This document shows, one piece after another, positions 2,996 through 43,552 of a stretch of 43,663 nucleotides of DNA (the first letter of the stretch is position 1; each line of letters begins with the position of its first letter). The notes beneath the pieces are model-generated. The model saw nothing but the letters and a program-made list of their open reading frames with translations, searched no databases and had not been told where the DNA came from. The stretch is taken from sequence record PZ445529.1; one strand, 5' to 3'. The position numbers were made by a program, and so were the translations under genes. The stretch is from a phage.

Positions 2996-3025
2996 TTGAC
3001 ACCTATCCTGCAACCAATCTATTAT
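2996..3025 (+). promoter_or_regulatory. main early promoter (-35 TTGACA, 18-bp spacer, -10 TATTAT) with TGCAACCAAT motif in the spacer
   Basis: ttgacacctatcctgcaaccaatctattat; drives the plus-strand early block through a ~195-nt leader. Confidence 0.55.
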
Positions 3026-4028: not shown

Positions 4029-4207
4029 TGAAATTCTTCGTGCTGGCAACATGCCACGAATTAGACGATCACACTTCTTTTATTGTTGAAAACACCAACG
4101 CAAGCAATTGCTTTGTGGACGCGCAAAATGAAGTTAAGCGCCGAGTCGAAAAAGCGGGCCTGGCGAATGTGAAATATGTAATTGTCCAGTTTACACGGGT
4201 GGAATAA
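4028..4207 (+). CDS. hypothetical small protein (59 aa), below the ORF-track size cut-off
   Basis: Hand-translated MKFFVLATCHELDDHTSFIVEN...; start overlaps upstream stop and stop overlaps downstream start (TAATG both ends). Confidence 0.45.
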   Translation: MKFFVLATCHELDDHTSFIVENTNASNCFVDAQNEVKRRVEKAGLANVKYVIVQFTRVE

Positions 4208-5637
4208 TGGCGATTAAACCAAAACGTAAAACGCAATCCGGTAGCAATACGGAACACTCATTACTCGGCCCGTCCGGTGCTAAAAAATGGATGGGTTGCC
4301 CTGCCGCCCTGGTGGTGGAAAAAGATATCCCGAACGAATCCGGGCAGGCGGCGATTAACGGTACGAGTATGCACACCGTATCTGAAGTCGTGCTAAACCG
4401 CATTATCGCCGGTGAAAAGCGGATAACAGCAAAGACGTATAAAGGATGTTACGTCGAGAATGAAGGCAAGGGGCCAGTAAAGGCGCACCCGAAAGCGCCG
4501 AAAGGCGGCGTACTGGTCAATGACGACATGGTGAAACAGTGCGATGCATACATCGACCACTGGCGCCCGCTCCTCGAAGTGGCGGAGTTTGTTCAGCTTG
4601 AGATGCGCGCCGATCTGACCCGCGTCCTTCATTCAGGCTTCGAGATCGACGGCAACAGGATTAAAACGTTCGGCACTGCCGATATGGTCATGGTCATGAA
4701 GAAGACCGACGGCACGTACATGCTGATTGTTGGCGACCTGAAGACGGGGCGGCATAAGGTCGAGGCGAAAGAAAACAAACAGCTTATGTTGTACGCGCTC
4801 GGCCTGCTGCGCAAGCTGCAATACATGTACGACATTACGACCGTGCGTCTGGTTATCTTCCAGCCATATTGTGGCGGGGCGTCGGAGTGGGATATTACAG
4901 TGGAAGCGCTGGAGATATTCGCGAAGTTTGCGTCCAAGCGTGCAATCGCCGCCCTGGAAGCGTACACCCGCGGCAAGAAGGGACTAACCCGCGCCGACTT
5001 CCGACCCAGCGTTGATGCGTGCCAGTGGTGCCGATTTGCGGACCAATGTAGTGCCCGGGCGAAGGCCGCAATCGACACGATGACACCACCAACGGCAACC
5101 GACGAAGACCTGGGCGACGACGTGAGTATCGCTACAGAGGAGGAATGCGCCAACCACGATCGCAATATGGCCCGCGAAGCCCGGAAGGCGGCACGACGTG
5201 CGAAGCGAGGCAAGAAAGAAGCGGCCCCCGGCGCTATGAGCGCGGCTGAACTGCGCAAGGCTTATGAAGGTCTGGACGCAATGCGCCAGCACATCAAAGC
5301 AATCGAGTCCGCGGTATTTAAGGCTGTGATGGCGGGTGATGGCGAATCGCTTGGCCTCAAGATGGTTGCCGGTAAGGAAGGGATCCGCAAGTGGGCGGAC
5401 GAGAGCGAAGTGATTGAAATCTTCACGAAGGCCCGGATCAAGCGCGATGTGATGTACAAAGAAACATTGCTCAGCCCTACTGATGCCGAGAAGGTACTGA
5501 AGGACGAGAAACCGAAAGTATGGGCGAAGCTGTGTGATAAAATCACGCGCGCACCGGCAAAACCGGTATTAGCACCAATCGACGATCCGCGCCCTGCGTG
5601 GTCGGAAGCTACTGACGAGGACTTAAGCAATGAATAA
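4207..5637 (+). CDS. PD-(D/E)xK exonuclease of the Cas4/RecB-like phage type (DUF2800-like)
   Basis: 476 aa; nuclease-core motifs GTADMVMV...IVGDLKTGRH; C-terminal Cys cluster CQWCRFADQC typical of Cas4-type nucleases; sits beside a putative SSB. Confidence 0.7.
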   Translation: MAIKPKRKTQSGSNTEHSLLGPSGAKKWMGCPAALVVEKDIPNESGQAAINGTSMHTVSEVVLNRIIAGEKRITAKTYKGCYVENEGKGPVKAHPKAPKGGVLVNDDMVKQCDAYIDHWRPLLEVAEFVQLEMRADLTRVLHSGFEIDGNRIKTFGTADMVMVMKKTDGTYMLIVGDLKTGRHKVEAKENKQLMLYALGLLRKLQYMYDITTVRLVIFQPYCGGASEWDITVEALEIFAKFASKRAIAALEAYTRGKKGLTRADFRPSVDACQWCRFADQCSARAKAAIDTMTPPTATDEDLGDDVSIATEEECANHDRNMAREARKAARRAKRGKKEAAPGAMSAAELRKAYEGLDAMRQHIKAIESAVFKAVMAGDGESLGLKMVAGKEGIRKWADESEVIEIFTKARIKRDVMYKETLLSPTDAEKVLKDEKPKVWAKLCDKITRAPAKPVLAPIDDPRPAWSEATDEDLSNE

Positions 5638-5872
5638 AGTATTCGCAATCTTATTGATGTTTTTGCTCGGCGCGCTGGGCTTTCTCCTGCATTGCGTGCA
5701 AGGCGTGTTAATGGTGGCCTGGATGATTCGCCATCCAACCCAATGGCTTGATGACGGCTATAGCGAAGCTGCCGTCGATTGGGTGGCGAAGAACATTAAC
5801 CGCCCGCCGTTAAGCTGGATCGAGAACGCGACCAACTACGTTACCAGAAATCTTTTTAATGAAAATGCTTGA
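5630..5872 (+). CDS. small membrane protein (80 aa, N-terminal transmembrane helix)
   Basis: Hydrophobic N-terminus ILLMFLLGALGFLLHCV; RBS GAGGA 9 nt upstream; ATG overlaps upstream gene end. Confidence 0.5.
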   Translation: MNKVFAILLMFLLGALGFLLHCVQGVLMVAWMIRHPTQWLDDGYSEAAVDWVAKNINRPPLSWIENATNYVTRNLFNENA

Positions 5873-5961
5873 CCGCTTAGGCACAACCAAGTAGATTAGC
5901 AACCAAGCCGGACGGGGTGGCTTCCAATAACCCCGATACATGTGAAATGAGGAATTGGAAA

Positions 5962-6690
5962 ATGGCTAAAGTCAACCTGAAAAATGTGCGCGTATGCTTC
6001 CTGAAAATTTGGGAACGTGACACCCCTAAACAGGATGGACAAAAACCGGCATACCGTGCCGTGATTCTTCTGGATAAAGAAGATCCGCAGGTGGACAAAG
6101 TGGAAGCGGCAGCGCGCGCAGTGCTCACCGACAAGCTGAAATCCGAGAAGAATGCCGATAAGTGGATGGACCGCCACTACGCCCAGGATTCGAAGGAATG
6201 CGCAGTTCGTGACGGTGACGAGCGCGACGAAGTATCCGAAGAATTCGAAGGCATGTTGTACATCAACGCTAAATCGTTCAAACAGCCAAACATTCAAACG
6301 TCACTCGGCGAGAAGCAGACCGAACAGGGTCTGACCGTAGAAGGCGACGAGATCGAAGGCCAGGAGATCTACTCCGGTTGTTATTGCAACGTGTCCCTTG
6401 ATATCTGGGCGTGGAACAACACCAACGGCAAGGGACTCGGTGCTGGCTTGCTGGGTTTACGCTTCCGTGATGACGGTGAAGCCTTCGGCGGTGGCGGGTC
6501 TTCTTGCTCCGATGAAGACCTGGACAACGACGACGAAGACGAAGCACCGCGCAAGTCCAAGAAATCCAAGCGCCGCGATGACGACGATGAGGAAGATGAA
6601 AAACCTCGCAAACGCCGCAAGTCCCGCGATGACGAAGATGAGGACGAAGACGACGAAGACGAAGCACCACGCAAACGTCGCCGCCGTTAA
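5962..6690 (+). CDS. putative single-stranded DNA-binding protein (DUF2815-like) with acidic/basic repeat tail
   Basis: N-terminus MAKVNLKNVRVCF... characteristic of the phage SSB family paired with Cas4-like exonucleases; start chosen at ATG 5962 (RBS GAGG); C-terminal DE/KR tail. Confidence 0.6.
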   Translation: MAKVNLKNVRVCFLKIWERDTPKQDGQKPAYRAVILLDKEDPQVDKVEAAARAVLTDKLKSEKNADKWMDRHYAQDSKECAVRDGDERDEVSEEFEGMLYINAKSFKQPNIQTSLGEKQTEQGLTVEGDEIEGQEIYSGCYCNVSLDIWAWNNTNGKGLGAGLLGLRFRDDGEAFGGGGSSCSDEDLDNDDEDEAPRKSKKSKRRDDDDEEDEKPRKRRKSRDDEDEDEDDEDEAPRKRRRR

Positions 6691-6748: not shown

Positions 6749-6919
6749 ATGCGTATTAAAGCCAGCGAAGTGAAAGTCGGAATGCAGGTATGGTCCAAAT
6801 TGCTGGGCGAGTATTTCACAGTTGCCGAGATTCGTAACAACGGTGAAGAGATCGCCCTGTCCGACGGCATCTTCTCCATGATCGGCAGCGCTGACGCCGT
6901 AGTGAGGATTAAGCAATGA
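6749..6919 (+). CDS. hypothetical small protein (56 aa), below the ORF-track cut-off
   Basis: Hand-translated MRIKASEVKVGMQVWSKLLGEYF...; stop overlaps polymerase ATG (ATGA). Confidence 0.45.
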   Translation: MRIKASEVKVGMQVWSKLLGEYFTVAEIRNNGEEIALSDGIFSMIGSADAVVRIKQ

Positions 6920-9207
6920 AAGACTTCGAACGCCTGTTTCTCGATACCGAGACATTTAGCGGGGTGGACCTGAAGAAAGTAGGGGCGTACGCCTACGCAG
7001 AGCACCCAACCACCGAGATTATGATTTGCACATACGCCATCGACGAGGGTCGCGTGCAGACATGGGACGCCACTGAATCCCCCACAATGCCGCGTGAACT
7101 GCGCAAGGCGCTCCGCCGGGTAACCCGCAAGAAAGCAAAAATCGTGATGGCTAACGGCCTCCTGTTTGACCGCCTGGTTATCCGTGAGAAGTGGGGTATT
7201 GACCTGCCCGTAAGCCAGATCGAAGACACCATGATTATGGCCTTTCGCCACGCGCTGCCCGGTAGCCTCGATATGCAGTGCCAGGTGTTGGGCGTTGACG
7301 CAGAGCACGCGAAGGATAAGGCAGGCAAGGCGCTGATCAAACGATTCTGTAAGCCTACCCCTAAGACCTACAAAATACGCCGCTACACTCGCGAGACTCA
7401 CCCAGAAGAGTGGGCCAAGTTTCTGCGCTATGCCGCGCTGGATATTGTTGCCATGCGTGAAGTCTACTGGCGCATACCGGACTGGGGCAACTCACCGAAG
7501 GAAGATGAAATCCTGCTCATCGACCAGTTGATCAACGACCGCGGCTTCTATGTGGACGTTGACCTGGCGAACGCCGCGATCAAAGCGGTGCAGGCGCATA
7601 AGGAAGAATTGAAGGAAGAAGCCTGGGAGCGATTTGGCGGTAAACTGACAGGCAATGACTTTCTGCCAATCCTGCGTGATATCGCACCGGCGTTTACAAT
7701 CCACAACGCGCAGAAATCCACACTTAACGACCTGCTTGAAGACCCGGACTTCCCCGACGAAGGCAAAGCGCTTATCGAAATGCGCCTCGGAGCGTCATCA
7801 ACGGCATCGACTAAGTACAATCCGCTAGTTAATGGCCTGTCGGCCGATGGTCGCCGCCGTGGGTGTCTTCAGTATGGTGGTGCAAAGCGCACGCTGCGCT
7901 GGGCGGGTAAAGGCTTCCAGCCTCAAAACCTGGCACGCGGCGAGTATAGCGACGATCACGAAGGGAAGATTAAGCGCCGCGAAGGCGAGAGCGACGTCGC
8001 TTTCTGGGTCCGGTCGCATATGCTCACCAACGGCATAAACTCCCTGTTACGCGGGACCGCACACTGGGCGTATGACATATCTAAGCTGACCGCCTCGACC
8101 GTTCGCGGGTGCATCATTCCGGCGAAGGGCAAGAAGTTTGTCGTCGCGGACTACTCCAACGTGGAAGGGCGTGGCCTTGCCTGGATCGCGGGCGAGAAAA
8201 CCGCGCTAATGGTGTTTAAGGCCGGACGCGATATCTATTGCGAGACTGCCGGTAAGATGTTCGGCCTTGACCCGGATTACATTAAAGCCAACCGCAAGGA
8301 CTTACGCCAGATTGGTAAGGCGTGCGAATTGGGACTGGGCTATGGTGGCGGCGTCGCGGCGTTCTTGCAGTTCGCTAAAAACCTGGGCCTCGACCTTTAC
8401 ACTATGGCGGACGTGATGAAAGGCACGTTCCCGGATCACATTTGGGCGGCGGCGAAACGTGGTTATGAGTACGCCCGCATTAACGAAGCGAAGCGCCCGC
8501 CGAAGCCCGGTAAGAAAGACGAGCGCCCAACATACATACTGCCGAAAAACGTATGGCTTACCTGTGACGCGATCAAACGTATGTGGCGTGAGGCTCACCC
8601 GAAGACGGTAGCCTTTTGGGCCGAGCTTGAGGACGCGGTGTTGTGTGCAATCCGCAATCCGGGCAAAGCATACTGGGCTGGCGCGAACGTTCGCCCGGAC
8701 GGTAGGAAAGCGCTCAAGATTGTGCGCACGAAGGCGAAGCACGACCCAACCTTCGACGAGGAGCGCGACGACCCGAACGCCGCGGGGTGGTGGTTGAAAA
8801 TTGAGTTGCCGTCCGGGCGCATCATGAGCTACCCAGGCATCGCACTGTCGGTCACGACCGAGATCGACGAAGACACCGGCAAGAAGCGCACCAGTACCCG
8901 CATCAAATATCAGGGCGAGAATCAGACGACGCGCCAATGGGGGTTCCAGTACACCTACGGCGGCAAACTTACAGAGAACATCGTGCAAGCGTTGTGCCGC
9001 GATATTCTCGCGTGGTCCATGCCTGGCGTTGAAGCCGCGGGCTATGAGATCGTACTGTCAGTGCACGATGAATTGATAACCGAAGTGCCGGATACTGACG
9101 ACTACACGACCGAGGAGCTATGCGCGCTGATGTGCGACCTGCCTGTTTGGGCGAAAGGCTTCCCACTTGCCGCCGAAGGCGACATTATGATGCGCTACCG
9201 CAAATAA
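6916..9207 (+). CDS. family A DNA polymerase (Pol I-like) with 3'-5' exonuclease domain
   Basis: 763 aa; exo motif LDTETFSG; Pol A motif A ADYSNVEGRGLAW, motif B RQIGKACELGLGYGGG, motif C VHDELITEV. Confidence 0.9.
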   Translation: MKDFERLFLDTETFSGVDLKKVGAYAYAEHPTTEIMICTYAIDEGRVQTWDATESPTMPRELRKALRRVTRKKAKIVMANGLLFDRLVIREKWGIDLPVSQIEDTMIMAFRHALPGSLDMQCQVLGVDAEHAKDKAGKALIKRFCKPTPKTYKIRRYTRETHPEEWAKFLRYAALDIVAMREVYWRIPDWGNSPKEDEILLIDQLINDRGFYVDVDLANAAIKAVQAHKEELKEEAWERFGGKLTGNDFLPILRDIAPAFTIHNAQKSTLNDLLEDPDFPDEGKALIEMRLGASSTASTKYNPLVNGLSADGRRRGCLQYGGAKRTLRWAGKGFQPQNLARGEYSDDHEGKIKRREGESDVAFWVRSHMLTNGINSLLRGTAHWAYDISKLTASTVRGCIIPAKGKKFVVADYSNVEGRGLAWIAGEKTALMVFKAGRDIYCETAGKMFGLDPDYIKANRKDLRQIGKACELGLGYGGGVAAFLQFAKNLGLDLYTMADVMKGTFPDHIWAAAKRGYEYARINEAKRPPKPGKKDERPTYILPKNVWLTCDAIKRMWREAHPKTVAFWAELEDAVLCAIRNPGKAYWAGANVRPDGRKALKIVRTKAKHDPTFDEERDDPNAAGWWLKIELPSGRIMSYPGIALSVTTEIDEDTGKKRTSTRIKYQGENQTTRQWGFQYTYGGKLTENIVQALCRDILAWSMPGVEAAGYEIVLSVHDELITEVPDTDDYTTEELCALMCDLPVWAKGFPLAAEGDIMMRYRK

Positions 9208-9583: not shown

Positions 9584-9861
9584 TGACACCAGAAGGCAAG
9601 GTTCAAAGTCACCTGATGAAGCTGGTTAAAGCAGTTGGTGGATTCTGCCGCAAAGTGGCATGGGAGGGGCGCGCAGGCGCGCCCGACCTGATTATCATCA
9701 TCAACGGCCGCATAGTATTCGTCGAAGTGAAGCGCCCAGGCGGAAAACCGAAGCCGCACCAGGTACGTGAACATGAGAGGATGGCCCGCCGCGGCGCGGA
9801 CGTTCGCGTTATAGACAACATCGCCGACTGTGATTTGTTGGTTGCTGAATTGGTCGCATAG
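9583..9861 (+). CDS. VRR-NUC domain nuclease
   Basis: 92 aa; PD-(D/E)xK-type motifs GAPDLIII...FVEVKRPGGK...QVREH; RBS GGAGG. Confidence 0.7.
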   Translation: MTPEGKVQSHLMKLVKAVGGFCRKVAWEGRAGAPDLIIIINGRIVFVEVKRPGGKPKPHQVREHERMARRGADVRVIDNIADCDLLVAELVA

Positions 9862-10341: not shown

Positions 10342-11766
10342 ATGGCACGATTCCGACGTCGCGAATATCAGAAGTTGATTACCGCGTTCATCCTCAAGCA
10401 TAAGCGATGTAATATCTGGGCGACAATGGGATCCGGGAAAACCGGCGCGACAATGTGGGCGCTGAATAAAATGTTCCAGACTGGCGTCCTGTCCCATCAT
10501 GAGGACCGCGTACTGGTGCTGGCCCCGCTGCGTGTTGCGTCAGGTACATGGCCCCCGGAACAGGAGAAATGGCGGTTCTCATCCCTGCTGGTCGTAGACG
10601 GCACCGGACCGGAGAAGGACCGTATTGCCGCGCTTGAGAGCGACGCTAACGTGGTTTGTGTTAACTACGATGTGGTTGAGTGGCTGGTTGACTATTACGG
10701 CGATGCGTGGCCCTTTACGGTCGTTGTTGCCGATGAATCGACTAAGCTGAAAGGCTATCGTAGCAAGCAAGGCAGTAAGCGCGCACGCGCACTGGCAGCG
10801 ATTGCACATAAACACGTCAAGCGCTGGATTAATCTGACCGGCACACCAGCGCCAAACGGCTTGAAAGACTTATGGGGTCAGACGTGGTTTGTCGACGGTG
10901 GCGAACGACTCGGCAGTAGTTATAAGGCATTTACCGATCGCTGGTTCATTAGCAAGCCTGTTAAGCCTGGCAGCTTCACGATGCAGCACGCTCCGCTAAA
11001 GAACTCCGAGAAAGAAATACAACAACGCCTGTCTGACGTATCACTAACCGTTGACGCTGCTGAATACTTCGGGTGCGACAAGCCAATCTATACGCCGGTT
11101 GTTGTGGACCTGCCGAAGAAAGCCCGCAAGATTTACGACCAGTTTGAAAGCGAGCTATTTGCCGAACTGGAAAGCGGAACAGTGGAAGCGGCGAACGCGG
11201 CATCGAAGACAATTAAGTGCCTTCAGCTTGCTTCCGGCGCTGTGTATAAGGTGGACGAAGACGGCGAACGGACCGACGAGTGGGTGAAGATTCACGACGC
11301 CAAACTGGACGCGCTGGAAAGTATCGTGGAGGAGTTGAACGGCGCGCCGTTGCTCGTTGCGTATCAGTACAAGCATGATCTGGCGCGTCTCAAGAAGAAA
11401 TTTCCGCACGGCGTAGCGCTGGGTAAGGGTAAGCAGGGGAATAAGGATATGGAAGCGTGGAACAGGGGCGAGATCCCCATCATGTTTGCACACCCGGCAT
11501 CCGCAGGCCACGGCCTTAACTTGCAGGACGGCGGACACCACCTGGCAATCTTCTCCGATACCTGGAACTTTGAGCACTTTTCGCAGATCGTGGAGCGTAT
11601 CGGGCCGGTTCGACAGATGCAGGCCGGACACCCTAGACCGGTATTCGTATACATTATCCAGGCGCGCGGAACACTGGATGAACTTGTCGCCGAGCGTCGC
11701 GACAGTAAGCGCGATATCCAGGACGATTTAATGGAATACATGAAAGCTAAAAAGGCGCGCAAATGA
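10342..11766 (+). CDS. SNF2/DEAD-like superfamily 2 helicase
   Basis: Walker A TMGSGKTGAT, DExx box VVVADESTKLKG; start at ATG 10342 immediately after the upstream stop. Confidence 0.75.
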   Translation: MARFRRREYQKLITAFILKHKRCNIWATMGSGKTGATMWALNKMFQTGVLSHHEDRVLVLAPLRVASGTWPPEQEKWRFSSLLVVDGTGPEKDRIAALESDANVVCVNYDVVEWLVDYYGDAWPFTVVVADESTKLKGYRSKQGSKRARALAAIAHKHVKRWINLTGTPAPNGLKDLWGQTWFVDGGERLGSSYKAFTDRWFISKPVKPGSFTMQHAPLKNSEKEIQQRLSDVSLTVDAAEYFGCDKPIYTPVVVDLPKKARKIYDQFESELFAELESGTVEAANAASKTIKCLQLASGAVYKVDEDGERTDEWVKIHDAKLDALESIVEELNGAPLLVAYQYKHDLARLKKKFPHGVALGKGKQGNKDMEAWNRGEIPIMFAHPASAGHGLNLQDGGHHLAIFSDTWNFEHFSQIVERIGPVRQMQAGHPRPVFVYIIQARGTLDELVAERRDSKRDIQDDLMEYMKAKKARK

Positions 11767-12053
11767 TAATCTGGTCATTGTTTGACGGCAGCGGCTTGAT
11801 GATTGAGCGTGCTGCCGAGATGGGGCATAAGTGTTATTGCTTCAACTACTCCGAAGCCGATCACGGGTCGTACCTTGACTACCGTATTTATGGTCGCGGA
11901 ATCCGGTATCGCAATGAGTTTATCGATCTGGACTTCGTGGACCGCGCGATGAATGGCGATTTCGGTACGCCAGATATCATCTATGCATTCCCTCCGTGCA
12001 CGGATCTAGCTGTGAGCGGTGCGCACCGCGAAGATCGCAGCTTACCTGGGTGA
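11763..12053 (+). CDS. C5-cytosine methyltransferase-like, N-terminal segment (motif I FDGSG, motif IV-like FPPC); frame ends at 12053
   Basis: SLFDGSGLM and AFPPCTDLAVSG resemble C5-MTase motifs I and IV; ATG overlaps SNF2 stop (ATGA). Confidence 0.5.
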   Translation: MIIWSLFDGSGLMIERAAEMGHKCYCFNYSEADHGSYLDYRIYGRGIRYRNEFIDLDFVDRAMNGDFGTPDIIYAFPPCTDLAVSGAHREDRSLPG

Positions 12054-12402
12054 CTTCTTCGAAGTGCCATATATGATTGAGAATCCGCGCAGTGTGCTTT
12101 CCACCCAGTGGCGTAAGCCGGACCACTCGTTTGATCCGTGGGAGTATGGGGGATATCTGCCGGAGGATGACGTACACCCGCTCTTCCCGGAATACATCAA
12201 CGCCCGCGATTCATATCCGAAGCTGACCTGCTTATGGACCGGCAACGGCTTCCGTATGCCTGAGAAAAAGCCTGTATTCGTTGAAAAAGGGTACTCGAAG
12301 CAGTATAGTCGCCTCGGAGGCAAATCAGCCCGCACAAAATTAATCCGGTCGCTCACCCCGCGCGGCTTCGCGATAGCAGTCAATGAGGAAAATTTAGAAT
12401 GA
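12019..12402 (+). CDS. C5-cytosine methyltransferase-like, C-terminal segment in +1 frame (motif VI-like ENP)
   Basis: VPYMIENPRS resembles the ENV motif; frame is open only from 12016; overlaps upstream segment by about 35 nt, suggesting a frame disruption or recoding. Confidence 0.45.
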   Translation: MRTAKIAAYLGDFFEVPYMIENPRSVLSTQWRKPDHSFDPWEYGGYLPEDDVHPLFPEYINARDSYPKLTCLWTGNGFRMPEKKPVFVEKGYSKQYSRLGGKSARTKLIRSLTPRGFAIAVNEENLE

Positions 12403-12722: not shown

Positions 12723-12727
12723 ATTGG

Positions 12728-12756
12728 TTGCATAACCATATTGGTTGCATTATATT
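12728..12756 (+). promoter_or_regulatory. sigma70-like promoter (-35 TTGCAT, 17-bp spacer, -10 TATATT) built on two direct ATTGGTTGCAT copies
   Basis: aaattggttgcataaccatattggttgcattatatt; contains TGGTT-gcat-AACCA inverted repeat. Confidence 0.5.
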
Positions 12757-13054: not shown

Positions 13055-13510
13055 ATGAAAATTTTACAAGAAGAAAAAGATTACTGGGCCGCGCAATGCC
13101 TCGAAGCCCGCGAACAGGCCGAACGGGCTAACTCGGTGGCGGACACCAACCAGGCGCTATATGAAGGAGAGAAGAAAGTGCGCCGGGAGTTAGAGGAACG
13201 CTTCGAACTGCTTTTCGAATTGATGGGGATTATGCAGCGCACCGGGTACACAACCAGCGTTGCGCTAAACCGCGTCACGGCTGATGCGTTGCGCGAGCAT
13301 TGCAAACGGGCCGAGGAATACGTGCGCTCGAAGGGCCGCCAGTCTTCGATCGCCCGGAAAGACCTTGTGCTCATGGCGTGGCGCAACCCTACAAACGGCA
13401 GCATCTACCCGAACGCGCGCCCGCTTAGTGTCGAAGAAGCAAAGCGCGTCATCAATAAAGGTGGTAAGACTCCACTTTATGCGATAGACACCGACCATGC
13501 AGAAGAGTGA
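13055..13510 (+). CDS. hypothetical protein (151 aa)
   Basis: ORF abutting upstream stop; RBS GGAGA. Confidence 0.5.
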   Translation: MKILQEEKDYWAAQCLEAREQAERANSVADTNQALYEGEKKVRRELEERFELLFELMGIMQRTGYTTSVALNRVTADALREHCKRAEEYVRSKGRQSSIARKDLVLMAWRNPTNGSIYPNARPLSVEEAKRVINKGGKTPLYAIDTDHAEE

Positions 13511-14187: not shown

Positions 14188-14654
14188 AATTACTGATTTG
14201 CGATTTGGATGGCGTTATTAATGGTTCAAGCGATGCGCGTGCCGACCTGGTGCCGGGGATAAAAACGAAATCAACCTTTTGGGCAAAGTGGCACAAAGCG
14301 CATGTACGCGAAGACCTGAACATGGATATGCTGCCGCTGTTGCGCATGTACAAAGAGCAAGGCTTCGAGATCGCGTATCTGACCAACCGGCAGCTAGAAT
14401 GCTGGGAGACTACCGCCGAGCAACTGGAGGTATTCCCGGCAGGCCGGTTGTTTATGCGCCACATGCTGGACGACACCCCGCCGCCAGAGTTTAAGGCGTG
14501 CGCTGTGTTCAAAATGGTCTGCTATGCAGACGTGTCTGAACTTGTCATCATTGAGGACTGCGAGAAGAACATCGCGGCAATTCGTCGGGCGTGCGGCGAT
14601 TTGGTCCCGAAAATTTACGCAATAAACGTTGCAAAATTCACTTGCAACCAATAG
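14184..14654 (+). CDS. HAD-superfamily hydrolase (nucleotidase/phosphatase-like)
   Basis: 156 aa; motif I LICDLDGVI (DxDG). Confidence 0.55.
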   Translation: MKLLICDLDGVINGSSDARADLVPGIKTKSTFWAKWHKAHVREDLNMDMLPLLRMYKEQGFEIAYLTNRQLECWETTAEQLEVFPAGRLFMRHMLDDTPPPEFKACAVFKMVCYADVSELVIIEDCEKNIAAIRRACGDLVPKIYAINVAKFTCNQ

Positions 14655-14660
14655 GTTGGT
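14632..14660 (+). promoter_or_regulatory. promoter-like element with perfect palindrome TGCAACCAA-tagg-TTGGTTGCA
   Basis: cttgcaaccaataggttggttgcattatag; -35 TTGCAA, 17-bp spacer, -10-like TTATAG. Confidence 0.45.
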
Positions 14661-14717
14661 TGCATTATAGTTAACGCGTCGGGGGGCAATACGGCCTCCC
14701 ATAAAAAGGACCACATA

Positions 14718-17389: not shown

Positions 17390-17410
17390 AGCTAAATCCT
17401 CGTAAATTGG

Positions 17411-17439
17411 TTGCAATCCAGGTTGAGCGGTGTAATACT
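17411..17439 (+). promoter_or_regulatory. promoter-like element with ATTGGTTGCAA motif (-35 TTGCAA, -10-like TAATAC) upstream of the lipoprotein gene
   Basis: cgtaaattggttgcaatccaggttgagcggtgtaatact. Confidence 0.4.
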
Positions 17440-31400: not shown

Positions 31401-32495
31401 TTAAGACGCGGTGGTCGCAGTCAGCGTAACCAGTACGCCAGCGGTTTCCTTGATGTGACGGGTAGGCACTGCCTGTGCGGCCTGGGTCTTACGACGGCCT
31501 TTAGTATCGCTATCGCCGCCAACATCCTGAACGGTTGCCGGTGCGTTGTCTACCTGGCCCTGGTCCAGTTCCCAGTTATCGACATTGGTAATATCGTCCA
31601 GTTTGAACGAGCGCACACCTTCGATCGGGGTTCGAGCGGACGCCGTCAGACGGTAACCTTTAACAGCCACGTTGAAGTCGAACTCGCCCTGCCACCAGCG
31701 CTCGATGTTCTCGTTACCGCCTTTCTCCTGCGCCAGCATATCGAGGCCGTTGGTGGTAACCGCAACCGCGCCAGGGACCAGGCCCAGCATTTTGCCAGCG
31801 CCCATAGCACCGGCAGCGGCATCGGAGATAATAAAACGGCGGCCCAGGCCGTCGCCCATCACTTGCAGATCGCCGATCGCGAATACCTGCTCGGCGGAAG
31901 GGAGCGCCTGGTAAGCAATGAAGTTTGCCCAGGTAACGCCGTCCATAAACCAGGATTTAATCAAAGACGCCTGATCGCCGAACTTAGAAGCCGCCAGCGG
32001 GAAGTCTGCCAGGGTTGGGAAGGTACGACCGCCAACGCCGTCAACGCGCGCCGGTTGGGTGTATTTTGCTTCTATGTTGCTTTCAATAGCTGCTTTGCCC
32101 GCACCGATACCAGCTTTGAGGTAATGCAGCATAATCGCTTGAGTAGCCTGTGCCGCAATCTCAGCCGCAACGCTGTTAACGTTGGTTTCGATCTTAGCCA
32201 TCATGGCCTTAGTGATCGCCACCGGACCCACTTTCGCGGACAGGTTAACGGAGTTGGTCAGCATACGCGCCAGCACTTTTGCGGTAGCCGGAGTACCTAC
32301 AGGGGCGTAGGCGTTACGGTCGGTAACGAGGTTGGCGATCAAGCCTACGGACATTTTTTCTACAACGTCCTTCAGCACTTCACCCGTGCCGAGAACAACA
32401 GCGCCGTTAGCGGCAGCGTTGAACACGTTCAGGTTATCGGGGATCATTTGCGTAACCGCGGTAACGAGTTTACGCTGGAACACTGTTAAAGACAT
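31401..32495 (-). CDS. major capsid protein
   Basis: 364 aa; RBS AAGGA; after scaffold gene and before terminator. Confidence 0.75.
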   Translation of the reverse strand: MSLTVFQRKLVTAVTQMIPDNLNVFNAAANGAVVLGTGEVLKDVVEKMSVGLIANLVTDRNAYAPVGTPATAKVLARMLTNSVNLSAKVGPVAITKAMMAKIETNVNSVAAEIAAQATQAIMLHYLKAGIGAGKAAIESNIEAKYTQPARVDGVGGRTFPTLADFPLAASKFGDQASLIKSWFMDGVTWANFIAYQALPSAEQVFAIGDLQVMGDGLGRRFIISDAAAGAMGAGKMLGLVPGAVAVTTNGLDMLAQEKGGNENIERWWQGEFDFNVAVKGYRLTASARTPIEGVRSFKLDDITNVDNWELDQGQVDNAPATVQDVGGDSDTKGRRKTQAAQAVPTRHIKETAGVLVTLTATTAS

Positions 32496-32592
32496 ATCGA
32501 AATCCTTTGAGTTGTGAGCATTCGCCCAGTGACGTTAATGTTACCTTAGATTTCCGCGCTAGCAAAATCGCCCGCGAAAGCGGGCGATCTGC

Positions 32593-33297
32593 TTACTCGT
32601 CGTCGCCCATCTTCGCGATGATATCCCCCGCCTGTTTGGTGAGATCGGTGATACCGAAGCTGTGGCCCATAGAGATTTTCGACTTCACATCTTCGACAAC
32701 ATGCGTCGGTTTGCTCGGCGCACCACCGGCTGGCGTGCCAGCCAGGACGGATGCAAAATCGGCGTTATTACGGAACTCTTTTTCAAGCTCTTCCATAGTC
32801 AGCGCGGATGGTTTGCCATCCTGCAAGACACGCACCTTCAAGCTGCCGTCTTCGCCGTCTTCCAGCGTCAGGCGGTCCATAACGTGGCGTTGCATGATGC
32901 CAGCATTCTTACCGAACAGCTTCGAGGCCAGGTCTTTGGCAGCGCTGCCGATGGTTAGATCGTGGATCTGCTTGCGGTAGGCTTCGATTTTTCCCGATGT
33001 GTCTGCTTCGTGTTTCGCAAACTTATCTTTCCAGGACTTGTCGATCGCTTCGAGGTCACCATTTTTTCGCGCGGCGGCTTCCTCTTTCTCTTTCGCAAGT
33101 CGCTCGGCTTCGGCGCGGCGTTCAGCTTCTGCTTTCTTCTCGCTCACCAGCTTCGCGTTATTGTCTTTCAGACCCTTGATTTCCGCCTGTACTTCTTCTG
33201 CGGTCATGAACGTTGATTTATACCCGTCGCCATCGGCAACAAAAAGCGCCTTCATACCTTCCGGCAACGCGTCATATTCTGCTTTAGTAAGTTTCAT
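32593..33297 (-). CDS. head scaffolding protein
   Basis: Start at ATG 33297 (RBS GGGGGA); charged helical sequence AEAERRAEAERLAKEKEEAAARK; immediately upstream of capsid gene. Confidence 0.6.
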   Translation of the reverse strand: MKLTKAEYDALPEGMKALFVADGDGYKSTFMTAEEVQAEIKGLKDNNAKLVSEKKAEAERRAEAERLAKEKEEAAARKNGDLEAIDKSWKDKFAKHEADTSGKIEAYRKQIHDLTIGSAAKDLASKLFGKNAGIMQRHVMDRLTLEDGEDGSLKVRVLQDGKPSALTMEELEKEFRNNADFASVLAGTPAGGAPSKPTHVVEDVKSKISMGHSFGITDLTKQAGDIIAKMGDDE

Positions 33298-33387
33298 GCT
33301 ATCCCCCTGGGATTGTGGCAGAGCAGGCCACCCGCTCGACTTCACGCTTCTAATATTATCAGCGATAAAAATAATCGCAAAATTCGC

Positions 33388-33416
33388 TTGCAATCCTCAT
33401 ATTGGTTGCATATATT
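33388..33416 (+). promoter_or_regulatory. sigma70-like promoter (-35 TTGCAA, 17-bp spacer, -10 TATATT) with two ATTGGTTGCA copies
   Basis: cttgcaatcctcatattggttgcatatattggttgcacaccaaca; the 21-mer tatattggttgcacaccaaca recurs on the minus strand at 43413-43433. Confidence 0.55.
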
Positions 33417-33445
33417 GGTTGCACACCAACAACGAGGACACACTA

Positions 33446-34210
33446 ATGAGACTGACGAAAGACATTAAAAACCAGATTCTGGCTAACATCCTGCGCGACC
33501 ACGAAATCGCAACCGAAGCCAAACAAATCATGATGGACTCTCGCGATCTGGCGTACGCAATCACGCTGGACTGTATGCCGGACGGCATTCGCACATTCGC
33601 AGCGCTCCGCGAGCATATCAAGGAAATCCGCGACGACCAGTCGCAGATGTACGGCGTCAGCGTATACACCAACAAGGCGACGTATAGTTATAACTCCGAC
33701 CGCCCGAAGGGTATCGGCAGCGTCTATAACGCCACCTTTGAAATCAACGCAGGCGGCAATGTTCGCACCTTGTCATTGAGCGGTGACGGTCGCCAATACC
33801 GCGTACATCGCGGATACTGGGAAGAGAAATATATGAATAAGCTTGCGCCTGATCTCGGCGATATCGTTCCGGGGTTCGAGACAGTTATGCTCGCGTCGGT
33901 GTGTGAAGTGGACGAGGACGGGAATGCGCTGCCGATATATCTCCCTCGCGGTCGCGTAGATTACCCGGCAGACCATGACTTCTGTAAACGCTTGGACCGC
34001 AACGACAAGGCCCGTAGCGAGTTGCGCGCGAAGTATGATGCGTTCAAACTAACCGTTACCGGTGTTCTGGACCTGCACAATACTGACAAGAAGCTGATTA
34101 AGGCATGGCCTGAAGTTGAGCAATTCATCCCTTACCCGGACAAGCCGAAGTCCACGGCGGTGGCGCTGGATGTGAAAACTCTCAACGAGATTTGCGGTAT
34201 TCCGCGCTAA
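33446..34210 (+). CDS. hypothetical protein (254 aa) on a moron transcribed antisense to the structural operon
   Basis: ATG 33446 with RBS GAGGA 7 nt upstream; no signal peptide or TM segment seen; own promoter and terminator; no motif I recognise. Confidence 0.65.
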   Translation: MRLTKDIKNQILANILRDHEIATEAKQIMMDSRDLAYAITLDCMPDGIRTFAALREHIKEIRDDQSQMYGVSVYTNKATYSYNSDRPKGIGSVYNATFEINAGGNVRTLSLSGDGRQYRVHRGYWEEKYMNKLAPDLGDIVPGFETVMLASVCEVDEDGNALPIYLPRGRVDYPADHDFCKRLDRNDKARSELRAKYDAFKLTVTGVLDLHNTDKKLIKAWPEVEQFIPYPDKPKSTAVALDVKTLNEICGIPR

Positions 34211-34212
34211 CG

Positions 34213-34237
34213 AAAAAGGGGCCATTACGGCCCCTTA
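34213..34237. terminator. bidirectional terminator between the moron (+) and the Rz1-like gene (-)
   Basis: aggggcc-attac-ggcccct with A-run upstream and T-rich downstream. Confidence 0.65.
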
Positions 34238-34455
34238 ATTATTTGCTGCAACTCCAGGACCTGCGCCCTCAGCTTAGCACCGCACTCCATATTTTTAACA
34301 TCAACCAGCAAATCTTCGTCTGGATCTGCCGAGGCATTCTCAAAGGTGCAAGGTGGCCTATAGACCGACTCGGTTAGCGGCGTCGATGGCACGTTGCTTG
34401 ATCCGCACGCGCTCATCATCAAAACTGCAATCAGGACGGTTAGGACGCGTAACAT
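34225..34455 (-). CDS. o-spanin (Rz1-like outer-membrane lipoprotein) overlapping the Rz-like gene in another frame
   Basis: 76 aa; signal peptide with lipobox LIAVLMMSACGSS; Pro-rich; RBS AGAGG. Confidence 0.65.
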   Translation of the reverse strand: MLRVLTVLIAVLMMSACGSSNVPSTPLTESVYRPPCTFENASADPDEDLLVDVKNMECGAKLRAQVLELQQIIKGP

Positions 34456-34666
34456 ATTTTACAACCTCTTTCGTGATAGTCCGGTATTCCACATCGCGGG
34501 TCTGTTCTGCTTGCACCGCCCCCTCGACGACCTTAGTTTGCTGCCGTTGGGCTTTCGCTTGCGCTTCTTGCGCCGCTCTCGCCTCAACGCCTGCGCGGTA
34601 GGAATCCCCCTGCCAGAATCCAACCGCCAGGCCTATTACCAGCCCAATCGCTGCGTATTTAATCAC
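34358..34666 (-). CDS. i-spanin (Rz-like)
   Basis: 102 aa; N-terminal TM helix AAIGLVIGLAVGFW then charged coiled segment; GTG start with GGGGG RBS. Confidence 0.65.
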   Translation of the reverse strand: MIKYAAIGLVIGLAVGFWQGDSYRAGVEARAAQEAQAKAQRQQTKVVEGAVQAEQTRDVEYRTITKEVVKYVTRPNRPDCSFDDERVRIKQRAIDAANRVGL

Positions 34667-35762
34667 GCCATAACCCCCGGTTTTTAAGCTGTGCGATAGT
34701 CATCAGTTCGCCAGAATCGGTGAACATCTTCGGCACTCTCACGCCTCGCATAATCTGGTCTGCGCGCTGCACTCCATATAATTCCTCCAGAATATGGCGC
34801 GGCTGGCGCTGCACCCATGAGAAGAAATCAGTCTGCGCGTCGACCTGCTCACTCAGCAATCTGCCCGCTTCAGCCTTCAGTGCCGGACGCTTACCACTGG
34901 GCCAATCTTCCATGCCCTTAACTTTCCACGTCTCCGTCGAACGGCAGCAATAATGTAGCTTGCCCGGACCAGCGCCATATTGTGATCCAGCCACCACTTT
35001 CCCGCCGCGCTTTCCTTTGGTGTCGGGAGTGACGTCAACAGGATAAAACAGGCGATCGCGTAGCTGGCACATTGGGGAAGTATGAGTGTCCAATGTAGCC
35101 AACCATTGGCGACCTTCGAGAATATCGTCATTAGCTTTTACCATTAATTCGCGGGCGGTAGCCGCGTAGTGGTTGACCGCGGACTTAACAACGCTTGAGA
35201 TTGCTTGCGCACTACGACCGCCTAGCGCGCGCCTCACATCCGCAATAATTTCCATCGTTGGCTTGCCCTGGATGAATCCGGCGCGCACCTGATTACCGAT
35301 CTGCGTCCTGGTCCACTCGGAAAGTGAATCAGGCCACTGCATCATGGTGTTACCCTGGAACGGGTTTCTCATTGCAGTCGCTGCGATCTGCGCGCCAGTC
35401 ACTACACTCACCACCTCCACCGCGGGTATGGCGACCGCGGGCTGGATCGCTGCCGTTAGTGTGTCCGAGAGATAATCAGCCTCGGTGTCGGCGAACTCCT
35501 GAAGGCTCTCCGCCAGCACTTTAAACTCGGCGCGCAGTTCCGTTTTGACGGTCTTGTCGATTCGGGTTAACAGTGTGGTAAGTGCCTTGTTGCTCATGGA
35601 CTTTTTGCCATCAAGTAACTCGGTCAACTTACCCAGTAAAGCGGGCCGGAACTTCTCCCACATAGCCAGCACCCGTCGCGCCTGATCATTGCTCAGGCGC
35701 TGGGTGAAGATGTGACGGCGAATCATTCGATCCGCCATATATTGATTAATTGTCTTCGCCAT
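34659..35762 (-). CDS. head morphogenesis / minor head protein (Mu F / SPP1 gp7-like)
   Basis: 367 aa directly downstream of portal. Confidence 0.6.
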   Translation of the reverse strand: MAKTINQYMADRMIRRHIFTQRLSNDQARRVLAMWEKFRPALLGKLTELLDGKKSMSNKALTTLLTRIDKTVKTELRAEFKVLAESLQEFADTEADYLSDTLTAAIQPAVAIPAVEVVSVVTGAQIAATAMRNPFQGNTMMQWPDSLSEWTRTQIGNQVRAGFIQGKPTMEIIADVRRALGGRSAQAISSVVKSAVNHYAATARELMVKANDDILEGRQWLATLDTHTSPMCQLRDRLFYPVDVTPDTKGKRGGKVVAGSQYGAGPGKLHYCCRSTETWKVKGMEDWPSGKRPALKAEAGRLLSEQVDAQTDFFSWVQRQPRHILEELYGVQRADQIMRGVRVPKMFTDSGELMTIAQLKNRGLWRD

Positions 35763-40628: not shown

Positions 40629-40658
40629 AGTGTAATACTCCTCTTGTTGATTGGTCGC

Positions 40659-40688
40659 AGTATGGCGTCTATGTTGGTTGCAAGTCAA
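40659..40688 (-). promoter_or_regulatory. sigma70-like promoter (-35 TTGACT, 18-bp spacer, -10 CATACT) with TGCAACCAA motif at the -35
   Basis: Reverse complement of 40659-40688; sits just after the terminator that follows the Ig-like gene. Confidence 0.4.
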
Positions 40689-41154: not shown

Positions 41155-41646
41155 TTATGCTGCGTTACGTCCGATCTTCTCGGCAACGTCCCACTGCTTA
41201 CCATCGAATAGCGCCTGCCTGCCGATTGCTCGACGGACTAACCCCTTCAGCACTTCCCCACCTTGCTTGCGGAATTGTGGCAGTATAGCCCGCACCTTTG
41301 CCCAGTCGCCCCGGCGGATCGCATCGTCGAAATCACCGGCTACGTCGTCCGGCATGATCGGACCAGGACCGGCATTGATTACCAGGTCCACCAGCGCGTC
41401 GAATTGCGCCTGATTGATGCTCGGGTGTGCGTACTTGTTCACCCAGTTCTCGGCATATGCCACATCGCGCTTGAGTAGCTCCAGTGCTTCCGCACGGGTA
41501 ATGCTTCGTGGCGGAGTAGTGCCAGTGTGCCCATAACCCCAGGTGTACAGGCCGCGGGCCTGCTCTTTCTTGGTCGCGAAATACGGCACCGGGCTGAAAG
41601 CCTCCCATGCTGCCGTAAATCGTAGACCGTTATCACTGAATCGCAT
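41155..41646 (-). CDS. endolysin (T4-lysozyme-like muramidase)
   Basis: 163 aa; N-terminal EAFSPVPY and TWGYGHT motifs. Confidence 0.75.
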   Translation of the reverse strand: MRFSDNGLRFTAAWEAFSPVPYFATKKEQARGLYTWGYGHTGTTPPRSITRAEALELLKRDVAYAENWVNKYAHPSINQAQFDALVDLVINAGPGPIMPDDVAGDFDDAIRRGDWAKVRAILPQFRKQGGEVLKGLVRRAIGRQALFDGKQWDVAEKIGRNAA

Positions 41647-41878
41647 GTTTTACCCCATTCAAAACAGCATTACGCAGCGTGCGCAATGCAAACAGCCAGA
41701 TTAACGCGGTCCAGGTGGTATCTGATACGTCTCCCGTTTGCAACAGCCCGACAATACAGGTCATTGCTGTTAGCAGATATAACACCCGACCGAAGAAGCC
41801 ATCCTGAACGGACGGCGCATACACGTTAAACAGGGACGAAGCCCCTATGATAACAAACAACAGGACGGAGATAATCAT
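41633..41878 (-). CDS. second membrane protein of the lysis cassette (holin/antiholin-like)
   Basis: 81 aa MIISVLLFVIIGASSLF...; ATG overlaps holin stop (ATGA). Confidence 0.5.
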   Translation of the reverse strand: MIISVLLFVIIGASSLFNVYAPSVQDGFFGRVLYLLTAMTCIVGLLQTGDVSDTTWTALIWLFALRTLRNAVLNGVKHAIQ

Positions 41879-42165
41879 TTTGCGCCCCCCGGAAGGTGTA
41901 GCGTCGCAATTGTCTCCCGGATCCGGTCGGCGATTGGCATCCAGAAGATGGCAGTTACGAAGCCCAAACCGGCGACAGTGCGCTCGCCAGACAAACCAGA
42001 CCACTCGGCAATAGCTGGCGCACCAAATATGGCACACAGGAAGCCAACTACGACATATAAAACGAAGTTCAACGGCCCTTTCGTTGCCTCGCCGTGAATG
42101 CGTGCGCCCACGAAGCCACCAGCAAGACACGCAAGGGCGAATAACCACTCGTTTAGCTTATCCAT
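41875..42165 (-). CDS. holin (three predicted TM segments, charged C-terminus)
   Basis: 96 aa; hydrophobic segments WLFALACLAGGFVGA, FVLYVVVGFLCAIFGAPAIA, VAGLGFVTAIFWMPI; immediately upstream of endolysin. Confidence 0.6.
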   Translation of the reverse strand: MDKLNEWLFALACLAGGFVGARIHGEATKGPLNFVLYVVVGFLCAIFGAPAIAEWSGLSGERTVAGLGFVTAIFWMPIADRIRETIATLHLPGGAK

Positions 42166-42818: not shown

Positions 42819-43084
42819 TTGCTCAGTCTCCAGTGTTTGCCTACCCGCTCAACGGCGGGCTTCCGGCGTAATGTAATACGGATCCCCATTGGTTGCAAGG
42901 AGGTCCGCACCCTGAAATCGTGTTGTGCTGCGAACTGGTGCAAGTAGCGAGTCTGCGTCAACGGCTTTACGTCGTCGCGATAGCACCAGAATACAGATTC
43001 ACCCTCAACCGCATTCTCAGCCCATATTCGTATGCAATGCAGGGGAATATGCCACGAAAGCTGTTTGGCGCGCCTACGGCTCAT
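42815..43084 (-). CDS. hypothetical basic protein (89 aa)
   Basis: ORF 10 nt after upstream stop. Confidence 0.45.
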   Translation of the reverse strand: MSRRRAKQLSWHIPLHCIRIWAENAVEGESVFWCYRDDVKPLTQTRYLHQFAAQHDFRVRTSLQPMGIRITLRRKPAVERVGKHWRLSK

Positions 43085-43093
43085 TTTGGCCCC

Positions 43094-43399
43094 TTATTTC
43101 GCAAGCTGGGCGAATAGTTCGCGCTGGGCTTTAATCCGGGCGACGTTTGTCACTGCCGTCTCACCGATCCCGAAGCGATACGCCAGGCGCTCACGGGCAA
43201 ATGCCTTGGCATATTCGTGAATTGCCATACGCAACGGCTTCAGGTCATCCAGGCTGGCGTCCATGCGGTAGAGCGCGTCACGAATTGATTGGTGCGCCAG
43301 TACCGCAATCTGCAGCGCCTGGTCTACGTTGCCGTTCAGTGCTTTCGCTTCTTCCAGCTTTGCCACGGCCAGGGTGTAATTCCAGATAATTGCTTTCAT
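43094..43399 (-). CDS. hypothetical protein (101 aa), first gene of the minus-strand operon leading into the lysis cassette
   Basis: ATG with RBS AGGA; promoter immediately upstream. Confidence 0.5.
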   Translation of the reverse strand: MKAIIWNYTLAVAKLEEAKALNGNVDQALQIAVLAHQSIRDALYRMDASLDDLKPLRMAIHEYAKAFARERLAYRFGIGETAVTNVARIKAQRELFAQLAK

Positions 43400-43427
43400 T
43401 GTTCAGTCCTCATGTTGGTGTGCAACC

Positions 43428-43456
43428 AATATAGCAAGGTGCCAGGCCGGATGCAA
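43428..43456 (-). promoter_or_regulatory. sigma70-like promoter (-35 TTGCAT, 17-bp spacer, -10 TATATT) with two ATTGGTTGCA copies
   Basis: Reverse complement gives ttgcat-ccggcctggcaccttgc-tatatt; shares an identical 21-mer with the promoter at 33388-33416. Confidence 0.55.
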
Positions 43457-43539
43457 CCAATATTAATCACGCGCATGAAAAAGTTGATCGCTATCTGCTG
43501 AGACTGCAAACCGCATTTTTCACTCAACATAATACAACC

Positions 43540-43552
43540 CGCATTGGTTGCC
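43540..43552. repeat. forward copy of CGCATTGGTTGCC motif
   Basis: Exact match to the reverse complement of 160-172 and 195-207. Confidence 0.8.

Follow-up and report, generated by a model that had tools for sequence, protein, structure and literature searches.

The 43,663-nucleotide stretch of phage DNA analyzed here (record PZ445529.1; "the window" denotes this whole stretch) is the genome of a Dhillonvirus coliphage, and 97% of its first 25 kb can be aligned with Escherichia phage SM_S22, at 92.6% identity. An antisense gene (33446–34210, plus strand, 254 amino acids) is flanked by the scaffold gene on one side and by the two spanin genes on the other; it is the only plus-strand gene in a minus-strand run of about 15.8–43.5 kb when the annotation of SM_S22 is transferred. 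Its sequence identifies this gene as the Dhillonvirus nmad5, encoding a full-length member of the Nmad5 family. As a discovery, nmad5 is already known, having been named and genetically studied in the same genus as a gene in which mutations give escape from the Tmn defence system. What is new here is a confident model of an orphan fold, the lack of conserved His, Cys or Asp residues, the absence of hypermodification genes from the window and a survey of the contexts of Nmad5 in other phages. Nmad5 is probably not the DNA-modifying enzyme that its name implies. Our tentative reading, to which we give somewhat less than an even chance, is of a non-catalytic protein, made early, that is accessory to phage DNA replication or metabolism and has a conserved site that would influence what Tmn senses.

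The protein matched the Pfam profile PF18757 (Nmad5, nucleotide modification associated domain 5) with E = 2.1e-61 and a score of 208.1 bits (cut-off 27), its residues 1–253 aligning to positions 1–206 of the 206 in the model. PHROG 1965 was matched as well (E = 5.7e-63). The family name reportedly comes from Iyer et al. 2013. When 1.84 billion representative proteins were searched with a profile, 531 relatives were retrieved at E <= 0.001 (clusters at 50% identity), mostly of 190–230 amino acids. A third, word-indexed homolog search with the broad alignment yielded few additional proteins. The exact allele of the window was absent from a collection of 15 billion proteins, the closest entry being 96% identical. 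The sequence-only reading had described this 254-residue antisense gene between scaffold and spanins much as we find it, and had seen no motif in its product; the Pfam match overturns the latter statement. The suggestion that the gene was a good candidate for an undescribed function has likewise been overtaken by the published genetics (PMC11846954). On the other hand, homology to a well-characterized protein, which would have spoken against that reading, was not found.

We defined conservation from 138 diverse Nmad5 members, taking the positions kept in at least 60% of them. They include R2, L3, T4, I7, I11 and N14 near the N-terminus, G104, G113 and P167 in the middle, and T213, L217, W221, P222, E223, P229, L246, N247 (invariant, 100%), G251, L252 and P253 towards the C-terminus. 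The resulting family signature, R-L-T, a G-G hairpin, T-x-x-K-L-x-x-x-W-P-E and L-N-x-x-x-G-L-P, is complete in the window protein, which has R2, L3, T4, G104, T213, K216, L217, W221, P222, E223, L246, N247, G251 and P253. Position 216 is occupied by K, R or Q in 122 of the 138 members. No His, Cys or Asp was found among the conserved positions, and the isoelectric point (pI) varies from 5 to 10 across the family.

An AlphaFold2 model built from the 138-sequence alignment was confident (pLDDT 91.1, pTM 0.83). It predicts three N-terminal helices, a beta-sheet region at about residues 76–173 and a long helix at 178–209, followed by two short helices, on which the K-L-x-x-x-W-P-E motif lies, and by a last helix at the C-terminus; R2 and T213 each appear as an isolated beta-bridge residue. 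Foldseek comparison of the model with BFVD (viral models) returned only Nmad5 members, and searches of the PDB with the sequence and with the 138-sequence profile returned no match. The predicted fold is therefore an orphan. NCBIfam had no match to Nmad5, and none of the PADLOC models matched either the window protein or its lambdoid homolog. Structure prediction with fold comparison, as the sequence-only reading had proposed, revealed no recognizable catalytic fold, and the alignment no conserved catalytic residues. The model lends no support to an enzyme assignment, although a new kind of enzyme would be conceivable. The sequence-only reading had also excluded a transmembrane segment, and no such or other hydrophobic segment was detected in the protein (highest Kyte–Doolittle mean over 19 residues, 1.24).

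The name of the family nevertheless invites another explanation, namely that Nmad5 is an enzyme, or an obligate subunit of one, acting in DNA or nucleotide modification, so that Tmn would sense modified DNA, which is the reading of Yamashita et al. The family was discovered by its association with modification genes, as the Pfam name records, and some contexts agree with this. In Yuavirus M6, Vojvodinavirus MW2 and SN1, Nmad5 lies inside the thymidine-hypermodification cluster, which makes use of 5-hydroxymethyldeoxyuridine (5-hmdU), beside a thymidylate-synthase-like gene and upstream of PolA. The proteins concerned, Pseudomonas M6 ORF056, SN1_019 and Bordetella MW2 gp16, belong to the same Pfam family as the window protein. 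The C-terminal third of the latter is 38% identical to M6, and the Dhillonvirus protein is about 70 amino acids longer. Furthermore, a PHROG-757 DNA methyltransferase-like gene stands directly downstream of Nmad5 in three of the loci that we examined (L004, L008 and L009), the same gene family is found elsewhere in Dhillonvirus genomes, and Dam genes occur near some Nmad5 loci.

Against this explanation, the M6/SN1/MW2 cluster also contains an aGPT-Pplase, a 5-hmdU kinase, and radical-SAM (S-adenosylmethionine), PLP (pyridoxal phosphate) and thymidylate-synthase-like enzymes, and when we looked for homologs of the M6 cluster anywhere in the window, only Nmad5 was recovered. Modification genes are also missing from its immediate neighbourhood, where the neighbours are scaffold and spanin genes and Dam is 20 kb away. 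Among 27 dereplicated clusters of IMG/VR neighbourhoods (see below), the only modification gene found, of those searched for within 6 kb, was Dam, in two clusters. The PHROG-757 family occurs in 1531 phage records, which makes adjacency weak evidence. For this reason, and as it was present in none of the 27 IMG/VR neighbourhoods, a specific partnership between Nmad5 and PHROG-757 was weakened as a candidate. The window's own PHROG-757 gene (11763–12402, plus strand) is broken, yet nmad5 is intact: a 56-bp frameshifting deletion between two GCGGTG(C/A)GC repeats splits it into open reading frames (ORFs) of 96 and 127 amino acids, whereas the SM_S22 copy is intact at 231 amino acids. This break may be either a pseudogene or an assembly error. 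Lambdoid phages carry Nmad5 too, and they are not known to hypermodify their DNA. The confident model, for its part, resembles no known enzyme fold, and no His, Cys or Asp is conserved in the family. Finally, deleting nmad5 leaves Tmn sensitivity unchanged (PMC11846954). We consider a modification enzyme or subunit unlikely, though with some weight left to it, and the data argue against taking the name Nmad5 as a function.

Where Nmad5 occurs in other phages points instead to replication. In a sister siphovirus (L003, homolog P0043), nmad5 sits in an early operon upstream of a DUF2800 nuclease, an Enc34-type SSB (a protein that binds single-stranded DNA), PolA, an SNF2 helicase and Dam. This replisome set is encoded by the window as well, with DUF2800 at 4207–5637, the Enc34 SSB at 5917–6690, PolA at 6916–9207 and an AAA_25 primase-helicase. 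We then considered IMG/VR neighbourhoods, for which 80 loci, found with a profile made from a 15-sequence subset, were dereplicated to the 27 clusters. In at least 8 of them Nmad5 is beside the DUF2800 nuclease, the Enc34-type SSB and/or PolA, the commonest order being DUF2800, Enc34 SSB, Nmad5, PolA, and in 6 further clusters it is within about three genes of a primase, helicase or PolA. The proposed link to replication draws on this placement of Nmad5 in the replication modules of the sister siphovirus and the IMG/VR clusters, on the shared replisome set of the window, and on a truncated beta-clamp homolog that adjoins Nmad5 in EP23 and in an unrelated myovirus (see below).

Other contexts were of two kinds. 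Lambdoid mEp235 (mEp235_037) and the Stx1 and Stx2 phages encode a full-length Nmad5 (E = 4e-72) as the first gene of the pL operon after N or Nun; a single 90%-identity cluster of this form comprises 2436 proteins of E. coli and Salmonella. The lambdoid protein has 207 amino acids and is about 34% identical to the window protein over the C-terminal 97 residues. Like the window gene, it is an early gene of an accessory region, but it is transcribed within the pL operon, whereas the window gene has its own promoter. Being under pL, it would be repressed in lysogens by standard lambdoid regulation, which makes an exclusion function expressed from the prophage unlikely. In the second kind of context, Nmad5 lies in opposite-strand islands inside structural modules, as in the Pbunavirus-like myovirus L007 and Vibrio phage VchM-138. 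The antisense island of L007 (9765–11637), beside the major capsid gene, encodes a helix-turn-helix protein, Nmad5, a homolog of the mini-clamp described below and a peptidase-like protein of the HslV family (PHROG 1040).

We also examined the transcription unit in the window. The sigma-70-like promoter (33388–33416, plus strand) has a -35 element TTGCAA at 33388–33393, a 17-nt spacer and a -10 element TATATT at 33411–33416. Its match to the consensus is, by itself, not significant, one such site being found in the region 32400–35000 against 1.3 expected by chance. However, two ATTGGTTGCA boxes (33401–33410 and 33414–33423, plus strand) overlap the spacer and the -10 element, and this 10-mer is strongly enriched, with 17 copies in the window (at most one mismatch) where 2.9 +/- 1.8 would be expected; in 100 shuffles the count never rose to 17. 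The copies are at 160–204, 3009–3018, 9849–9858, 12723–12749, 14643–14664, 17406–17415, 33401–33423, 40650–40682, 42888–42897, 43421–43461 and 43543–43552. They are often paired, with one inverted pair, TGCAACCAAT-ag-GTTGGTTGCA, at 14643–14664. Same-strand copies precede early operons, namely the small-gene operon from 43399 and those of the primase-helicase and the methylase. The box looks like an element, operator or promoter, through which a phage regulator acts. In addition, the 21-nt string TATATTGGTTGCACACCAACA is common to the nmad5 leader and the region upstream of the minus-strand early gene starting at 43399. Because the nmad5 promoter carries boxes that mark early operons, its assignment to the early class of this phage is a reasonable reading. 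SSL-2009a and Shigella phage EP23 have kept the promoter block, even where another gene stands between it and nmad5.

A candidate GAGGA ribosome-binding site (33434–33438, plus strand), read from the sequence, lies 7 nt before the ATG. Downstream, a G+C-rich hairpin, AAGGGGCC-ATTAC-GGCCCCTT (34216–34236), with a stem of 8–9 bp including 6 G-C pairs, was called as a terminator on both strands; it would serve nmad5 and, convergently, the o-spanin gene, whose ORF (34225–34455, minus strand) ends inside the hairpin so that its stop codon is overlapped. The elements that the sequence-only reading had listed (an early-type promoter with two box copies, a GAGGA site and a bidirectional terminator) are thus all present, the boxes being enriched and the promoter consensus on its own at chance level. 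With a promoter and a terminator of its own on either side, nmad5 appears at the sequence level to be a real, self-contained early transcription unit.

This arrangement also bears on the idea that Nmad5 is a head structural or assembly protein, for which its position between the scaffold and the head-morphogenesis/spanin genes is the only argument. The gene is on the opposite strand under an early-class promoter, its homologs are found in replication modules and pL operons, and the deletion mutant is viable (PMC11846954). We regard a structural role as highly improbable. The overlapping i-spanin and o-spanin genes (34225–34666, minus strand) are themselves part of the head-gene block, and some 7 kb separate them from the genes for holin and endolysin (41155–42165, minus strand).

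The gene is real and under purifying selection, because substitutions pile up at third codon positions and are mostly synonymous. Five Dhillonvirus alleles that we compared had their changes concentrated at third positions, and between the window and EP23 alleles there were 7, 6 and 32 substitutions at codon positions 1, 2 and 3, respectively, with 33 synonymous and 9 non-synonymous codon changes. The window protein is 90% identical to SM_S22 CDS0006. This high identity to the published gene and the opposite-strand synteny with scaffold and spanins identify it as an ortholog of the Dhillonvirus nmad5.

Longer in-frame starts exist, giving 403 amino acids from GTG 32999 and 334 from ATG 33206, and both versions overlap the scaffold gene. 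We rejected them as the true start because the M-R-L-T N-terminus, which is conserved family-wide, begins at 33446, and this supports the 254-residue version. SM_S22 CDS0006 is annotated with 334 amino acids from the upstream ATG (33206 in the window), overlaps the scaffold gene and is 80 codons too long. The SM_S22 scaffold coding sequence (CDS) also seems over-extended (272 amino acids as compared to 234 in EP23), and as annotated the nmad5 and scaffold CDSs (locus 5005–6009 and 5804–6622) overlap by about 200 bp. For the window scaffold gene (region 32593–33393), the most likely start is the ATG at 33295–33297 on the minus strand.

The phenotype of nmad5 is known from SM_S22 and SMA8, with which the window phage was compared by sequence alone. 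Mutants that escape Tmn carry K216E in SMA8 and K296E in SM_S22 lacking anti-Tmn, affecting the same residue (Yamashita et al., Commun Biol 2025, PMC11846954); the latter numbering rests on the start that is 80 codons too early. Undoing the change makes the phage sensitive to Tmn again. The nmad5 deletion is viable and does not escape from Tmn, cloning of nmad5 failed, apparently through toxicity, and T1 is also blocked by Tmn (PMC11846954). In SM_S22 (CDS6) and SMA8 (CDS7), nmad5 occupies the same antisense locus as the window gene, Lys216 is shared, and the window protein has the length of the SMA8 version, 254 amino acids. In the window, Lys216 is encoded by AAG at 34091–34093 (plus strand). 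K216 was unchanged in all 40 Dhillonvirus-type alleles that spanned the motif, out of 42 retrieved.

Tmn is a decameric membrane nucleoside triphosphatase (NTPase), whose cytosolic arms bind RIIB of phage T2 and thereby trigger plasmolysis (Wu et al., bioRxiv 2026, PMC13001434). RIIB is an early protein, described as a replisome–membrane anchor (PMC13001434). The RIIB proteins of T2 and T4 resemble Nmad5 in being early phage proteins in which point mutations give Tmn escape (PMC13001434), and RIIB is linked to replication. They differ in that RIIB nonsense mutations give escape, whereas the nmad5 deletion does not. RIIB alone activates Tmn (PMC13001434), whereas such activation by Nmad5 would be hypothetical. 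No homology was detected between Nmad5 and T4 RIIB (hhalign probability 0.3%).

These data raise the possibility that Nmad5 is simply the protein recognized by Tmn, K216E removing the recognized surface. Independent escape mutants of two phages share the substitution and reversion restores sensitivity (PMC11846954), and Tmn is now known to bind a phage protein trigger directly (PMC13001434). However, a phage lacking nmad5 remains sensitive (PMC11846954). T1, which Tmn blocks, is not among the organism names listed for the tblastn matches of Nmad5, and the absence of detectable RIIB homology speaks against this explanation as well. As the deletion gives no escape, Nmad5 would not be the sole trigger of Tmn, and we find the simple-trigger explanation improbable.

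Two further candidates from the literature on defence were rejected. Nmad5 is not Ksap1, the Dhillonvirus protein sensed by KpAvs2, which is a different, 74-amino-acid gene. The SECphi18 escape mutants of Stokar-Avihail et al. do not map to nmad5; they map to SSB and DNA polymerase. Elsewhere in the window (13055–13510, plus strand) we noted a homolog of SM_S22 ORF35, the published anti-Tmn protein (151 amino acids, 84% identity). A promoter-like region with a pair of ATTGGTTGCA boxes (12723 and 12740) is found about 300 nt upstream of it. Close anti-Tmn homologs are reported to differ in activity (Yamashita et al.).

In our tentative reading of Nmad5 as an accessory protein of replication, it would be made early, from its own early-class promoter, antisense to the late head and lysis genes. 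It would adopt the orphan fold of a helical bundle with a small beta-sheet domain. The stretches R2-L3-T4, T213-x-x-K216-L217-x-x-x-W221-P222-E223 and the L246-N247-x-x-x-G251-L-P tail may come together in one putative binding site, and the partner would be found at replicating phage DNA: a protein of the replisome, an enzyme that modifies DNA, or the DNA itself. In the laboratory the phage can do without nmad5, and expression of the gene by itself apparently harms E. coli. K216E hits the conserved site, and the altered Nmad5 may then either mask the true trigger, that is its partner, or gain an ability to block Tmn.

Several points weigh against this proposal. The clustering of the conserved stretches in one site was deduced from the predicted secondary structure only, and the binding to DNA or to a replisome protein is likewise a proposal. 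Lambdoid phages, which replicate with the host polymerase, also carry Nmad5. Its neighbourhoods are equally rich in DNA-modification genes, as illustrated by the M6/MW2 cluster, PHROG-757 and Dam. Replication modules are large, so that proximity to them may partly reflect shared early timing. The conserved R2, T213, K/R216, E223 and N247 could form a catalytic or nucleotide-binding pocket. Lastly, because the deletion of nmad5 is viable, any role in replication must be accessory.

The neighbourhood of nmad5 is variable in one respect only. The 1-kb nmad5 locus matched 154 phage records, almost all of them Escherichia or Shigella Dhillonviruses, and 137 of these held at least 80% of the query, so that nmad5 is present in most sequenced Dhillonvirus records. 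One of the matches is MG065648.1, an unannotated record of 35 kb under the name "Campylobacter phage A144"; it shares 94.6% identity with the locus, and its host assignment or sample is probably wrong. What varies is a cargo slot that separates the nmad5 promoter from the start codon. In SSL-2009a and phages of its type it holds a gene of 109 amino acids (locus 738–1067, PHROG 24635), and in EP23 (4640–4760 region) and phages of that type one of 170 amino acids (4147–4659, PHROG 3007), annotated as a "RusA-like" Holliday junction resolvase. At the end of either insert stand a small GGGGCGAAAGCCCC hairpin and a second copy of the ribosome-binding site. The slot of the window contains no cargo gene.

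The EP23 "RusA-like" gene aligned to residues 140–282 of DnaN (E = 4.5e-8, PDB chains), keeps a DGRFPDxRRV motif and ends in a DnaN-like C-terminus, ...MPMRL. Its sequence thus identifies it as a truncated beta sliding clamp, which might act as a clamp decoy or mimic. A homolog adjoins Nmad5 in the unrelated Pbunavirus-like myovirus L007 (10618–11160), and others lie within 5–6 genes of Nmad5 in two IMG/VR clusters. However, the truncated-clamp family occurs in 287 phage records, most of whose phage names are not among the Nmad5 matches listed. With adjacency in only two lineages and proximity in two more, a specific partnership between Nmad5 and the truncated clamp is weakened. The consensus of beta-clamp-binding motifs is Q-L-x-L-x-L/F. 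We rejected the C-terminal L-N-x-x-x-G-L-P of Nmad5 as such a motif, as it does not fit this consensus and is predicted to be helical.

The sequence-only reading had called nmad5 a moron, and this term fits in part. Like phage morons, nmad5 has its own promoter and terminator, lies on the opposite strand and is not needed for plaque formation; the independent antisense unit is thus confirmed. Unlike them, it is no sporadic insert present in some and absent from other close relatives: most Dhillonvirus records have it, and its homologs are usually found in replication modules.

The same reading had also expected a role in conflict with the host. In its developed form, Nmad5 would be a dedicated host-takeover or counter-defence effector that binds and inhibits a protein of the host (a nuclease, a restriction complex or the beta clamp, for instance) instead of serving the replisome of the phage. 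Early units antisense to structural genes carry Nmad5 in three unrelated phages (the window phage, L007 and Vibrio VchM-138), and the slot ahead of nmad5 holds other accessory cargo, including the truncated DnaN. In lambdoid phages Nmad5 comes directly after N, and on the lambda map this position holds ral and other accessory genes. The toxicity on cloning and the Tmn escape conferred, as a gain of function, by a single substitution agree with an effector as well (PMC11846954). The general expectation of a bearing on conflict was right, since the ortholog sets Tmn sensitivity and is toxic when cloned (PMC11846954). Against a dedicated effector, wild-type Nmad5 gives no protection from Tmn (PMC11846954), no PADLOC model matched, the wide pI range of the family shows no acidic DNA-mimic character, and the commonest context is the replication operon, not the accessory island. 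We therefore hold a host-directed effector to be unlikely, although not negligible.

The observations of the sequence-only reading were confirmed, and its interpretation is partly supported. Modification, a host-directed effector and a simple trigger all keep real weight, and they are compatible with an early accessory protein of phage DNA replication or metabolism. A bolder form of this proposal, which we put forward as speculative and rather unlikely, is that Nmad5 is a widespread protein of new fold that docks on the replisome or on nascent DNA, possibly recruiting modification enzymes or engaging the clamp. It would then be the node at which Tmn-type membrane NTPases sense phage replication, and K216E would be neomorphic, either hiding the true trigger or blocking Tmn directly.

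Nmad5 is common: it forms 531 clusters at 50% identity, one E. coli/Salmonella prophage cluster alone comprises 2436 proteins, and it bears on the engineering of therapeutic phages to escape Tmn. The label of a DNA modification enzyme has served to explain the Tmn phenotype. Because the predicted fold is an orphan, catalytic-type residues are not conserved, no modification pathway is present here and homologs are mainly in replication modules, the hypothesis would shift from Tmn sensing modified DNA to Tmn sensing a replication-linked protein complex, in line with its recognition of T2 RIIB.

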